Origin: an uncultured Candidatus Saccharibacteria bacterium
GTDB taxonomy: Bacteria > Patescibacteriota > Minisyncoccia > Phycocordibacterales > JAKFXT01
DNA: 35,486 nt
Assembly (NCBI GenBank): GCA_964357075.1
Contig: CAYHJR010000001.1
Span: 1-35,486 of the forward strand
Direction: 5' to 3'
A program made the translations under genes and the position numbers. The notes beneath the pieces are model-generated. The model saw only the letters and a program-made list of their open reading frames with translations, was not told the DNA's origin and made no database searches. Position 1 is the first letter of the stretch; the number at the start of each line of letters is the position of its first letter. Below are positions 22,148 to 25,093 of this stretch, piece by piece.

Positions 22148-25093
22148 TTAATTTTTTACCACAAAATTAATAATCTTACCCTTGACATACACGACCTTTT
22201 CGAACCCGCCCAAAATCCACTTTCCAATTATCGGGTCGGATTTTGAAAGTGAAATAACTTTTTCTTCCAAAGCGTCATTGTCAACCTCTATCATACCGCG
22301 GGTCTTGCCATTAACCGAGACCGGCAAATAGATATTTTTCTTTATCAGTTTTTTCCTATCATGTTTCGGCCATGGCGTAAGATGAACGTTTTTTTTATTA
22401 CCAAGATTATGCCAAATTTCTTCCGTCAGATGAGGAGCAAAAGGTGAGAGCAATTTCAAAAATATTTCAAAATCCTTTCTTGAAACAGAGTTGGATTTTT
22501 CAAATTCGTTGGAAAGTATCATCAGAGAGCTAACTGCCGTATTCATTTTAAGCTCTTCAATATCCTCCCCCACTTTCTTAATCGTCTTATGCATTAAGGA
22601 ATCCAGTTCTTTACTTGTTGGTTGTTGGTTGTTGGTTGTGAGTTTTTCCTGAAGCTTCCACACCCTTTCTATAAAACGACGACACCCGACCATGCTATCT
22701 GTATTCCAAGCAATCGCTTGCTCAAACGGTCCCATAAACATTTCATATAATCTCAAGGTGTCAGCTCCAACTTTCTCAATAATGGTGTCCGGGTTTATGA
22801 CATTGCCTTTAGATTTACTCATCTTTACTCCCCCTTCGGCTAGGATTAATCCGTGGGAAGTTCTTTTCTTGTAAGGTTCTGATGTGGGTACCAGTTTTAA
22901 ATCGTAAAGAAACTTGTGCCAAAATCTTGAATACAAAAGGTGAAGCGTGGTGTGTTCCATTCCGCCGTTATACCAATCCACCCCGTTAGAGGTGGGCTCA
23001 CGCTGCGGGCCCTCGCGACCTCTAACGGGGCGAGCCGTCAGCCAATATTTTAGGTTTTTTTGCGAGGCAAACTCCTTTTTATTTTTAGGGTCAGTGTAGC
23101 GAAGATAATACCAGCTTGAGCCGGCCCAATTTGGCATCACGTCTGTTTCGCGTCTGCCTTTGCCTTTGCATTTTGGGCATTTGACGTTTACCCATGAAGA
23201 GATATTCGCCAAAGGCGATTCGCCGGTATTTGTCGGTTTATAGTTTCTAACTTTTGGAAGCAATACCGGTAATTGCTTTTCCGGCACCGGCACAAAGCCG
23301 CATTTCTCGCAATGTATTATAGGTATCGGTTCACCCCAGTAGCGCTGCCGCGAGAAAACCCAGTCACGCAGTTTAAAAGTTGTTGTTTTTTTACCCCTCA
23401 CAAACTTGGTGATTGCCCACTTGGCTTTTTCACTATCCATTCCGTTAAATTTTCCGGAATTAACAACGACTCCTTCCCCCGTATAACAAAAACTTTCCTT
23501 GTCCCAGCGTGAGAGCCAAATATCCAACTCCGCATGAACAATTTTTGGGTATGCAATCTCATTTTTAGAGAACCAAACAATTTCATAACTTTCCTTTTCT
23601 TCCTGACTTCTTTCTTCTTGGGCTTCATCAATAAGCTCAAACATTACGGCGTTAGTGAAAGATATTCTATTTTCGTCTTTATGCGCCGCATAATATTCCG
23701 CTCTGGCAACACCCCCCATTACTTTTACCAACTTTAAATTGGTGTATCCAGTTTCTTCTCTGGCTTCTCTTCTTGCCGCTTCAACCAAATCCTCCCCCTC
23801 ATGAACCCCGCCCATGGGAAAAGTAGTCCAAGGCTGTTTTTTCCACTTTAAACATAAAATCTTGCCGTCCCGAGGATTTCTGATAATTGCGTGCACATTC
23901 CTTCTTTCTACAATTTTTTTACCTTTGCGTGGTGGGTTGTATATATCTATTCTATTCGGAATTACAACTTCTCTTATCGGCAAATTAAATCTTTTAGCAA
24001 ATTCAAAATCCCTATCATCATGCGCCGGCACCGCCATAATAGCGCCGGTGCCATAATGTCCGAGAACATAGTCCGCGACATATATAGGAATTTCTTCTCC
24101 GTTTGCCGGGTTAATTGCCATCAAACCATCGAGCTTTACTCCCGTTTTTTCTCTGCTTGCGTCCGTTCTCTCCTTCTCATTAATTCTAGAAGCAAATTCA
24201 AGGTACATCTTAACCTCAAGAGAATTTTTTACTTTATCTTTGTGGGTTTTTATTAATTCATGCTCCGGCGCTACCACTAAATAAGTGGCGCCGAAGAGAG
24301 TGTCGGGCCTCGTGGTAAAAACTGAAATAGCTTCCAACTGTCGGCTTTTAGCTTTTAACTTTTCTTCACCCTGAAAGCTGGAACCTGAAAGCTGAAAGCT
24401 GACTAATGCTCCTTCGCTTCTGCCTATCCAATTTCTCTGCTGTGTCACAACTTGCGGTATATAATCAACCAAATCTAAATCTTTATGAAGACGGTCGGCA
24501 TATTTGGTAATAGCCAGCATCCATTGTTCTTTATCGCGCTTTTCGGTTGGCCCATCACAACGCTCACATTTTCCATCTACAACCTCTTCATTGGCCAAAC
24601 CAATTTTACAATTCAGACACCAATTAATCGGCACCTTGGCTTTGTAAGCCAATCCTTTTTTGAAAAGCTGTAAAAAAATCCATTGTGTCCATTTATAATA
24701 TCTCGGGTCAGTAGTATTAATTTCACGCGACCAATCAAAGGAAAAACCAATTTGTTTCAATTGTCTTCTAAAAGTGTCTGTATTTTGTTTGGTAACAATT
24801 TCTGGGTGAATTCCGGTCTTGATTGCATAATTTTCAGTCGGCAATCCAAAAGCGTCCCACCCGATTGGATAAAGCACGTTATACCCTTCGGAACGGCGCT
24901 TCCTCGCAATTATGTCCATGGCCGTGTTACTCCTAATGTGGCCAACGTGGAGTCCATCGCCTGATGGATAAGGGAACTCTATAAGACCGTAAAATTTTTT
25001 CTTTTTAGAAGGAAATTGAGCATTGTCTATCTTTTGCTTACCCCAAATCTTCTGCCACTTCTTCTCAATCTTTTTATGGTCGTACTGATGCAT
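22148..25093 (-). CDS. leuS: leucine--tRNA ligase carrying an inserted Nudix domain and repeat-derived insertions
   Basis: HIGH (GLHVGHIRS), KMSKS (VKMSKSKGN), CP1 editing motifs ([38 protein letters not shown]), and [16 protein letters not shown]. The start is taken at [14 protein letters not shown] (25093). Confidence 0.95.
   Translation of the reverse strand: [981 protein letters not shown]
22614..22641. repeat. heptamer array (GTTGTTG) x4 inside leuS
   Basis: cttgttg gttgttg gttgttg gttgtga. Encodes TTNNQQPTS. Same word family as the dnaK tail array. Confidence 0.85.
22981..23030. repeat. GC-rich hairpin element in frame inside leuS
   Basis: CCCCGTTAGAGGT, 24 nt, ACCTCTAACGGGG (13-bp perfect arms). 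Encodes part of [19 protein letters not shown]. Confidence 0.9.
24324..24400. repeat. eleven-unit heptamer array inside the leuS CP1 region
   Basis: gaaatag cttccaa ctgtcgg cttttag cttttaa cttttct tcaccct gaaagct ggaacct gaaagct gaaagct. Confidence 0.85.

Follow-up and report, generated by a model that had tools for sequence, protein, structure and literature searches.

A conserved Nudix hydrolase module nested in the editing domain of leucyl-tRNA synthetase in Patescibacteria

We analyzed a 35,486-nucleotide (nt) stretch of DNA from an uncultured Candidatus Saccharibacteria bacterium (contig CAYHJR010000001.1 of assembly GCA_964357075.1; the whole stretch is called the window here) and found that its leuS gene encodes a leucyl-tRNA synthetase (LeuRS) with a Nudix hydrolase module inserted into the CP1 editing domain. 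That the module is real, conserved and nested in the editing domain we regard as practically certain. Our best reading of the system as a whole is that the module is an active nucleotide-polyphosphate hydrolase coupled to aminoacyl-tRNA synthetase (aaRS) function, to which we give a probability of about 0.45. Coordinates are positions in the window, and residue numbers count from the TTG start of the open reading frame (ORF), so that the first residue of the ATG-initiated protein is M13.

The ORF listing shows leuS as a single open frame on the minus strand (22148..25129), with 993 codons from the TTG at 25129. A public protein of 981 residues (P0001) is identical to the window LeuRS and begins at the ATG at 25093, the probable start codon. 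The protein scored 935.4 bits against the bacterial LeuRS model TIGR00396 (leuS_bact; equivalog cutoff, 548.4), and a Pfam scan returned tRNA-synt_1, the editing domain PF13603 (E = 7.9e-57), NUDIX PF00293, and Anticodon_1. The HIGH, KMSKS, TTRPDT, and GTG...AHD motifs are intact, including the conserved Asp. A full-length AlphaFold2 model from a 72-sequence alignment had a predicted local distance difference test score (pLDDT) of 86.1 and a predicted template modeling score (pTM) of 0.78, with only two short lineage-specific loops below a pLDDT of 50. Using Foldseek, the whole model matched E. coli LeuRS-tRNA complexes with template modeling scores (TM-scores) of up to 0.83 (target normalized). 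The motifs and the predicted fold are consistent with leucylation and editing activity, and the full-length likeness, motifs, and fold are those of bacterial LeuRSs (TIGR00396; Thermus thermophilus 1h3n and 2bte, E. coli 4aq7). Unlike the Thermus and E. coli enzymes, the window LeuRS has a Nudix module of about 155 residues in place of a 13-residue loop and no leucine-specific domain, which the alignment to 1h3n did not show before KMSKS.

A first-pass annotation, made by reading the DNA alone, had proposed a complete Nudix domain within this LeuRS at 23492-23962 (residues 390 to 546). The profile search upheld the call, as PF00293 matched residues 409 to 529 with an E value of 6.8e-16 and 58.9 bits (gathering score, 21.1) and the canonical Nudix box lies at residues 440 to 462. 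The proposed size of the insertion (about 145 to 157 extra residues) was likewise borne out: when aligned to T. thermophilus LeuRS (1h3n), residues 390 to 547 stand in for a 13-residue loop (1h3n residues 363 to 375), a net gain of about 145 residues. The proposed site, at the CP1 hinge, where CP1 would already have ended and the catalytic core would resume, needs correction. In the native protein, the PF13603 match ends at profile position 144 of 185. After in silico deletion of residues 392 to 545, it extends continuously over positions 1 to 183 of 185. Because PF13603 runs unbroken once the insert is deleted, the roughly 40 residues that follow the insert (residues 548 to 586) still belong to CP1, and both the excision test and the 1h3n alignment place the insert inside CP1. 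The nesting has three levels, with the Nudix module within CP1 and CP1 within the Rossmann fold (Table 1).

The module consists of an N-terminal extension, the Nudix alpha/beta/alpha core, and a C-terminal helix, and it is near-neutral overall (pI 7.1). For comparison among relatives, we built a profile alignment (A1) from 30 diverse inserts, and its numbering serves the 297 aligned domain copies of the subfamily. When the insert was modeled alone with AlphaFold2, it gave the alpha/beta/alpha Nudix topology with a pLDDT of 95.2, and the helix at A1 positions 62 to 74 bears the REx2EE residues. The same region had a pLDDT of 88 to 95 in the full-length model. A Foldseek search of the insert against the PDB returned 516 matches at an E value of ≤1e-3, and the best 50 of these 516 were all members of the Nudix superfamily. 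None of the solved LeuRS chains matched by PDB sequence search and Foldseek has an insert at this site.

Table 1. Features of the window leuS gene and its product (aa, amino acid residues; AF2, AlphaFold2; Tth, T. thermophilus)
Feature	Coordinates	Strand	Evidence
leuS, bacterial-type LeuRS, 981 aa from ATG	22148..25093	-	TIGR00396, identity to P0001, AF2, Foldseek
HIGH signature (HVGH, aa 61-64), synthetic site	24938..24949	-	Read from sequence
Hotspot 1: disordered 19-residue loop, aa 248-266, N-terminal CP1 edge	24332..24388	-	pLDDT <50; length varies among homologs
CP1 editing domain, N-terminal three quarters, aa 232-393	23951..24436	-	PF13603 positions 1-144/185
TTRPDT motif (T-rich), aa 272-277	24299-24316	-	Motif location
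GTG...AHD editing motif, aa 360-371	24017-24052	-	Motif location
Nudix module nested in CP1, aa 390-547	23489..23962	-	Alignment to Tth LeuRS; free-standing homologs; AF2; PDB fold matches
Pfam NUDIX PF00293 match, aa 409-529	23543..23905	-	E = 6.8e-16, 58.9 bits
Nudix box, aa 440-462 (E446, R454, E455, E458, E459)	23744..23812	-	Strict Gx5Ex7REx2EExG pattern
Post-box subfamily residues H483-K484..N487-R488, E511...W519	23573..23683	-	Conservation over 297 domains
CP1 editing domain, C-terminal quarter, aa 548-586	23372..23488	-	PF13603 after excision; 1h3n alignment
Catalytic-core re-entry	23321-23377	-	1h3n alignment
KMSKS signature, aa 769-773	22811..22825	-	Sequence motif, 1h3n alignment

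The same architecture recurs widely. The survey of orthologs that the first-pass annotation had called for found PF00293 at the same site in all of the 120 best homologs, which are 50 to 73% identical to the window protein and come from independent assemblies in NCBI, JGI, ENA, and Logan (some contigs measure 0.2 to 0.86 Mb, and some exceed 500 kb). Where named, they belong to Patescibacteria, Paceibacter, or Moraniibacteriota. The strict Gx5Ex7REx2EExG box is present in 116 of the 120, 80 residues after the editing AHD motif, and about 226 residues separate VPAHD from DWxFSRQR. Scanning species-representative genomes, we found the insertion at the same site also in LeuRSs with 40 to 60% identity in the core and 25 to 55% in the insert. 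In a set of 1.84 billion representative proteins, a search with the profile found 7,963 hits at an E value of <1e-3, 477 at <1e-10 (a mixture of embedded, fragmentary, and free-standing copies), and 159 at <1e-30; the top hits were full-length LeuRSs, LeuRS fragments, multicopy proteins, and free-standing proteins of about 160 residues.

Carriers with clear taxon labels are Paceibacteria/Parcubacteria, Magasanikbacteria, Taylorbacteria, Moraniibacteriota, and Saccharibacteria. We did not rely on the labels Gammaproteobacteria, Bacilli, Muribaculaceae, Methanosarcinales, Pacearchaeota, and Nanoarchaeia, which look like unreliable bins or possible transfers. Bins with the titles Pacearchaeota, Methanosarcinales, or Nanoarchaeia also contain bacterial-type LeuRSs with a nested Nudix (L028, L017, and P0357); these are either misbinned contigs of the candidate phyla radiation (CPR) or transfers into DPANN archaea, and the L028 protein differs in its C-terminal tail. 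The module is not universal within the radiation: of the best 120 matches to a CPR LeuRS that lacks the Nudix, 83 had no PF00293 and 37 did, and the Nudix-less set includes Nomurabacteria, Moranbacteria, Lloydbacteria, Kaiserbacteria, and Taylorbacteria. This comparison did not bear out the impression of a one-off given by the first-pass annotation, as a Nudix within LeuRS is widespread though patchy in Patescibacteria. Public protein sets already contain it, with the Nudix among their precomputed Pfam hits, under names such as "leucine--tRNA ligase" or "class I tRNA ligase family protein," the latter being all that NCBI currently gives for such proteins.

An assembly chimera or annotation artifact, in which the Nudix segment would be foreign to leuS, has a negligible probability. 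The identical in-frame architecture is found in more than 100 independently assembled genomes, among them those with the long contigs mentioned above. The GC content of the insert (0.39 to 0.41) is the same as that of its flanks, with even composition across the junctions, the frame is continuous over all 993 codons, and AlphaFold2 models the junctions confidently. Misassembly was rejected on the grounds of conservation, composition, and the continuous frame. In a mirror-tree comparison, the pairwise identities of insert and core were uncorrelated (Mantel r = 0.03; P = 0.34), and nearest neighbors agreed in 21 of 72 cases. This null result is likely due to the compression of core identities at 0.60 to 0.70 in a star-like radiation, and we treat it as uninformative rather than as support for domain swapping.

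To follow the catalytic residues, we used the 297 aligned domain copies (A1 numbering, with the ORF residue in parentheses). The three glutamates of the REx2EE segment are nearly invariant: E69 (E455) is kept in 294, E72 (E458) in 288, and E73 (E459) in 295 copies. G54 and G55 are kept in at least 287 copies, R23 (R409) in 284, K98 (K484) in 289, N101 (N487) in 288, R102 (R488) in 275, E125 (E511) in 270, and W133 (W519) in 283. The window copy is canonical at every tabulated conserved Nudix position. The U positions of its box are A456 and Y462, and Tyr is usual here in the subfamily (ETGY). H483-K484..N487-R488 and E511...W519 downstream of the box may contribute to substrate or metal binding. 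The module is under purifying selection across Patescibacteria, and near-invariant residues against an overall domain identity as low as 25 to 30% argue for catalysis. Judging from these residues, we consider it probable that the module is catalytically active. The view that the insert has the features of a working enzyme and not of a relic fits the near-invariant metal-binding glutamates and the predicted fold (pLDDT 95), which matches solved Nudix structures.

Some copies depart from this pattern. The box is disrupted in a few embedded copies (P0014, P0024, P0105, and P0117). A covarying box variant, E60Q with R68A/M/T, was seen in 26 of the 297 copies, mostly additional ones (examples are P0117, P0170, P0187, P0174, and P0185, with extra copies in P0013, P0018, and P0121). 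It retains E69, E72, and E73 as well as the downstream K/N/R/E/W motifs and may represent a functionally shifted or attenuated paralog type. Both the variant and the disrupted boxes would fit a catalytically silent structural or regulatory domain, that is, a nucleotide sensor or an interaction platform with a Nudix-like sequence. Inactive Nudix proteins that bind Ap4A (diadenosine tetraphosphate) do exist, for example, CF Im25 (PMC7705103). We nevertheless consider a silent domain highly improbable, as the window copy has all canonical residues and E69, E72, and E73 are kept in at least 97% of copies, while the inserts themselves are only 25 to 55% identical.

The module also occurs as a separate gene. 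Free-standing homologs of about 160 residues keep the same N-terminal extension and C-terminal helix, which supports the module boundaries given in Table 1. At two loci (L086 and L087), a gene for a 161-residue Nudix protein (P0198) is separated by 3 bp from a downstream leuS gene without the insert, whose PF13603 match is continuous (1 to 185 of 185). A sister LeuRS (P0271), 77 to 80% identical to the L086/L087 LeuRS in both core halves, has the module embedded at residues 370 to 524, and this embedded module is the closest relative of the free-standing P0198 (51% identity). Gene order around P0271 is as in the window (ychF, leuS, Sigma70_r4/HARE-HTH, DUF8128, yceG, mnmA, PD-(D/E)XK), and no Nudix gene is found upstream of its leuS. 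The Nudix module is therefore separable and can exist as a gene of its own directly upstream of leuS.

To see where other free copies reside, we took 11 free-standing homologs from the best-scoring short proteins. Six of them adjoin aaRS genes of four specificities (leuS, argS, thrS, and proS). Three lie directly upstream of leuS, at distances of 2 bp (P0142), 3 bp (P0198), and 136 bp (P0264); P0253 is upstream of thrS, P0226 directly follows proS, and P0211 directly follows argS, with ileS one gene further on (L088). Assuming a 5 to 7% chance of adjacency, the probability of at least 5 aaRS-adjacent copies among these 11 best-scoring short proteins is approximately 1e-4 to 5e-4. At L088, a different Nudix is found with dUTPase and thymidylate kinase genes, while the LeuRS-type Nudix lies between argS and ileS. 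The fission pair, in which the split gene remains in the leuS operon, and the placement of free copies beside aaRS genes of four kinds lead us to favor, by a little, a Nudix function linked to the aaRSs.

Two further observations concern these free forms. The L088 locus that holds argS and the free-standing Nudix also encodes (5094-8498) an isoleucyl-tRNA synthetase (IleRS) of at least 1,184 residues with an embedded histidine-phosphatase domain (His_Phos_1). Free-standing proteins of about 286 residues that combine a partial PF13603 (positions ~82 to 144) with a nested Nudix are encoded at L025:2638-3507 and L035:2629-3489, in metagenome-assembled genomes labeled Clostridia. In these mini-CP1 proteins, the catalytic Asp is replaced (LHV or AHI), and their gene neighbors are cytidylate kinase, CYTH, His_Phos_1, GNAT, and APH genes.

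We compared the module with known Nudix families. All of the 30 diverse inserts had an RppH model as their best NCBIfam match, at about 28 bits. With the PRK00714 (RppH) models, the best score was 27.9 to 28.2 bits, below their cutoffs of 116 to 259, and only profile positions ~8 to 81 aligned. With the MutT models (TIGR00586 and PRK10776), the window insert had no match at an E value of ≤0.01, and they were matched weakly by 3 to 6 of the 30 inserts. The best PDB sequence match was lupin Ap4A hydrolase (1f3y; E = 1e-4 over 60 residues, in the N-terminal half only). The top Foldseek matches were an uncharacterized Enterococcus faecalis Nudix protein (2azw), many E. coli RppH entries, Ap4A/Ap6A hydrolases, MutT1, and NUDT15, with query-normalized TM-scores of 0.55 to 0.68 and identities of 14 to 24%; the Ap4A/Ap6A hydrolases 3i7u and 1vc8 had query-normalized TM-scores of 0.56 to 0.59. 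An aromatic pair, Y479/Y480, lies 17 to 18 residues past the Nudix box (family consensus AEYFAAHK). A Tyr or Phe at this distance resembles the Ap4A-hydrolase signature. The lupin match, the aromatic pair, and the TM-scores to 3i7u and 1vc8 are not specific enough to assign the module to the Ap4A hydrolases.

As the NCBIfam, PDB sequence, and Foldseek matches were all subthreshold or of low identity, membership in a named Nudix subfamily was rejected. The module forms a distinct subfamily that lies outside every named family and is nearest to the RppH/ApnA-hydrolase group (ApnA, diadenosine polyphosphates). RppH/NudH/IalA and the Nudix Ap4A hydrolases (1f3y, Aquifex 3i7u, and Thermus Ndx1 1vc8) share its fold and the canonical box, with query-normalized TM-scores of 0.56 to 0.64. 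Unlike these enzymes, the LeuRS module has an NPPxxGKxxxR extension and the HK..NR and E...W motifs and is embedded in LeuRS or encoded beside aaRS genes.

The nearness to RppH raises another reading, in which the module would be an RppH-like enzyme for RNA or tRNA ends that removes 5′-pyrophosphate or Np4N caps or repairs modified (e.g., pyrophosphorylated) tRNA ends on CP1, acting in some relatives jointly with a HAD phosphatase. RppH is the most consistent neighbor in both sequence and structure, and the module sits in CP1, the domain of LeuRS that handles the tRNA CCA end. The conserved basic motifs NPPxxGKKxxER, LKWKK, and HK..NR also speak for this reading, as do the combinations of Nudix and HAD domains in some LeuRSs (P0017, P0044, and L030) and the precedent of RppH, known to work docked on the unrelated DapF (the complex is among the PDB matches). 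However, the RppH scores fall far below the cutoffs with alignment of the N-terminal half alone, the module is near-neutral, and both the free copies and the degenerate mini-CP1 versions (L025 and L035) suggest that an intact tRNA-binding context is not needed. We consider an RNA- or tRNA-end activity improbable.

In the reading that we prefer, this LeuRS is a fully equipped synthetase, with synthetic and CP1 editing sites and an anticodon-binding domain, and an autonomous Nudix of about 155 residues occupies a loop on the surface of its editing domain. The Nudix would act as a Mg2+-dependent pyrophosphohydrolase with a job tied to aaRS activity. Enzyme-bound aminoacyl-adenylate may react with ATP or another nucleoside triphosphate (NTP) to give Ap4A, Ap3A, Ap4N, and p4A, and the asymmetric cleavage of these dinucleoside and nucleoside polyphosphates would be the most likely task of the module. 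The products, ATP and AMP, would return to a cell that may be unable to make nucleotides de novo. Leucylation and editing would proceed independently, with LeuRS serving as a scaffold and coexpression partner. It is established that aaRSs make Ap4A and ApnN from aminoacyl-adenylate and that the Nudix enzymes RppH/NudH/IalA, MutT1, and NUDT2 split Ap4A asymmetrically into ATP and AMP (PMC7705103). The nearest families (RppH and ApnA hydrolases) and the aaRS-adjacent free copies lend circumstantial support to the Ap4A by-product idea, which is plausible but unproven. A substrate of the ApnA type specifically is a tentative proposal, and we would sooner expect it to fail than to hold.

Several points weigh against a hydrolase coupled to aaRS function. 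To our knowledge, LeuRS is not among the strongest producers of Ap4A. The Nudix is dispensable for LeuRS as such, given the 83 Nudix-less sequences among the 120 described above. The named-family scores lie far below their cutoffs and the structural identities are 15 to 24%; therefore, the substrate is not assignable by homology. The three leuS-adjacent free copies may be duplications or fissions of leuS and are therefore not independent functional evidence. Among the remaining free-standing homologs, one follows fpg/mutM at a distance of 4 bp, with ruvA and polA alongside (an 8-oxoguanine repair context), and four lack an aaRS neighbor: two are next to another Nudix and a MarR-family regulator gene, respectively, and two are near RNase Y and a Sua5/YrdC-family gene, respectively. 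Finally, the unrelated hydrolase and nucleotide domains found in CPR LeuRSs fit opportunistic hitchhiking equally well.

These other domains recur at a few sites. Hotspot 1 is filled in some relatives (P0017, P0037, P0121, P0136, P0285, and P0279) by a Ham1/ITPase-like domain or by additional Nudix domains, one or two in number; the Ham1/ITPase-like domain is that of P0285 and, by sequence, P0279. HAD and alpha/beta-hydrolase domains lie outside hotspot 1. At hotspot 2, the site of the window Nudix, two LeuRSs have non-Nudix inserts (P0332 and P0373). Giant variants (P0017, P0037, P0044, L030, L020, and L016) go further: P0017 has 1,722 residues with three Nudix stretches plus alpha/beta-hydrolase and HAD domains, L020 has a second Nudix later in CP1, L030 has a Nudix and a HAD-like segment at hotspot 2, and L016 has a Nudix N-terminal to CP1 with hotspot 2 empty. 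Nucleotide and phosphate hydrolases are a repeated theme among the domains added to LeuRS, which cuts both ways.

Read in one direction, the theme points to generic house-cleaning, in which a MutT/ITPase-like NTP pyrophosphatase would occupy a permissive loop of a large, essential, and constitutive protein, uncoupled from leucylation. This is the main rival to our reading, followed by the RppH-like activity on RNA or tRNA ends. The Ham1/ITPase-like, HAD, alpha/beta-hydrolase, extra Nudix, and NTase-like inserts at several sites of CPR LeuRSs are what it would lead one to expect, and so are the patchy presence of the Nudix among close relatives and the free copy beside fpg/mutM. MutT, MutT1, and NUDT15 are among the structural matches, and P0142 has the JGI name "MutT (NUDIX family)," a generic label. 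On the other hand, 6 of the 11 free-standing homologs reside beside aaRS genes of four specificities, and the split Nudix gene remains 3 bp from leuS. At L088, the dUTPase/thymidylate kinase cluster holds a different Nudix and the LeuRS-type one lies between argS and ileS. Moreover, the MutT models are matched by 3 to 6 of the 30 inserts, whereas RppH is matched by all 30. On balance, we consider house-cleaning unlikely, and an aaRS-coupled polyphosphate hydrolase remains our best reading.

Parts of this arrangement have precedents. The IleRS with a GNAT domain (NCBIfam NF040702) shows an accessory enzyme on a class Ia aaRS, and mycobacterial MutT1 (a Nudix joined to a histidine phosphatase) and the RppH-DapF complex show a Nudix combined with a phosphatase or docked on a housekeeping enzyme. 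MutT1 is itself counted as an Ap4A hydrolase (PMC7705103). We cite these cases as analogies only; in contrast to them, the Nudix described here lies inside the editing domain rather than at a terminus, and its partner is LeuRS. Split and modular LeuRSs (the Aquifex alpha/beta LeuRS, Mycoplasma mobile LeuRS without CP1, and free-standing editing domains; 3o0a and 3ziu are among the PDB matches) show that LeuRS tolerates fission and loss around CP1. The Nudix/leuS fission pair and the mini-CP1 plus Nudix proteins have a similar modularity. Whereas those cases concern parts of the synthetase itself, here a foreign hydrolase is the piece that comes, goes, or splits off.

The surroundings of leuS in the window are an ordinary chromosomal context, with dnaK/dnaJ/grpE, ribosomal protein genes, rpoA, alaS, mnmA, yceG, a gene for a Sigma70_r4/HARE-HTH protein, leuS, ychF, and an ATP synthase operon on one strand. 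Within leuS, we noted a GC-rich perfect hairpin of 50 nt at 22981-23030 on the minus strand, with a 13-bp stem (CCCCGTTAGAGGT/ACCTCTAACGGGG) and a 24-nt loop. It sits in a 54-nt in-frame insertion (22982-23035; 72% GC versus ~41% for the genome) that encodes residues 699 to 716, is missing from 62 of 72 homologs, and is disordered in the AlphaFold2 model. The predicted RNA fold has a free energy of −39.6 kcal/mol (z = −3.3). The hairpin recalls palindromes inserted in frame, for example, the Rickettsia palindromic elements (RPEs), and no second copy of it, exact or with ≤3 mismatches, was found within the window.

More perfect or near-perfect palindromes (17469-17512, 17631-17667, and 18531-18557) lie in or at the start of mnmA (17355..18539, minus strand), with 22-nt arms without a spacer and 17-nt arms. 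They fall in MnmA residues ~288 to 372, a stretch not aligned by the Pfam C-terminal domain model, which suggests that mnmA may also have received in-frame palindromic insertions. Other genes on the minus strand also attracted attention. The alanyl-tRNA synthetase (13075-14865) has only 596 residues, its tRNA_SAD match covers the profile only up to position 28 of 44, and a domain scan did not detect a C-Ala region at its C terminus. The ORF at 16409-17284 joins an ATP-cone and an Mrr-type restriction-endonuclease domain in one protein. Three ORFs of 405 to 453 residues (19548-20858, 10279-11640, and 11681-12898) have no Pfam match, and the first of them occupies the place of the DUF8128 protein in syntenic relatives.

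We found no description of the LeuRS-Nudix architecture in the open-access full-text literature (subscription-only papers were outside the scope of the search), which agrees, within that scope, with the first-pass annotation, to which no such insertion was known. We see in it a variation on known themes, with a LeuRS that has a nested accessory enzyme and a new aaRS-associated Nudix subfamily. Catalytic domains added to aaRSs have been described mainly in eukaryotes and are usually located at the protein ends. Here, an essential bacterial synthetase has a whole enzyme of another superfamily within its proofreading domain. Deeply diverged lineages of a major, uncultivated radiation have kept this enzyme, and a separate gene beside leuS can take its place.

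If the module acts on aaRS by-products or on tRNA ends, it would provide a testable link between aminoacylation and the turnover of Ap4A and other nucleotide polyphosphates, which would be relevant to organisms that salvage nucleotides, and the Nudix may be the missing Ap4A hydrolase of these lineages. A broader view, which we consider less likely than not, is that the Nudix is the third catalytic site of LeuRS or, when split, a dedicated partner of several aaRSs. It would then be a Patescibacteria-specific aaRS-coupled hydrolase that recycles aaRS-made Ap4A/ApnN on the spot or acts on the CP1-held tRNA acceptor end, and it would be one of several hydrolase modules (Nudix, Ham1-like, HAD, and alpha/beta-hydrolase) in the synthetases of ultrasmall cells. 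If so, these modules would amount to a previously unrecognized functional layer of the translation apparatus. Even if the module serves generic house-cleaning, the CP1 loops would be evolvable insertion platforms, useful for aaRS engineering and for the annotation of CPR genomes.

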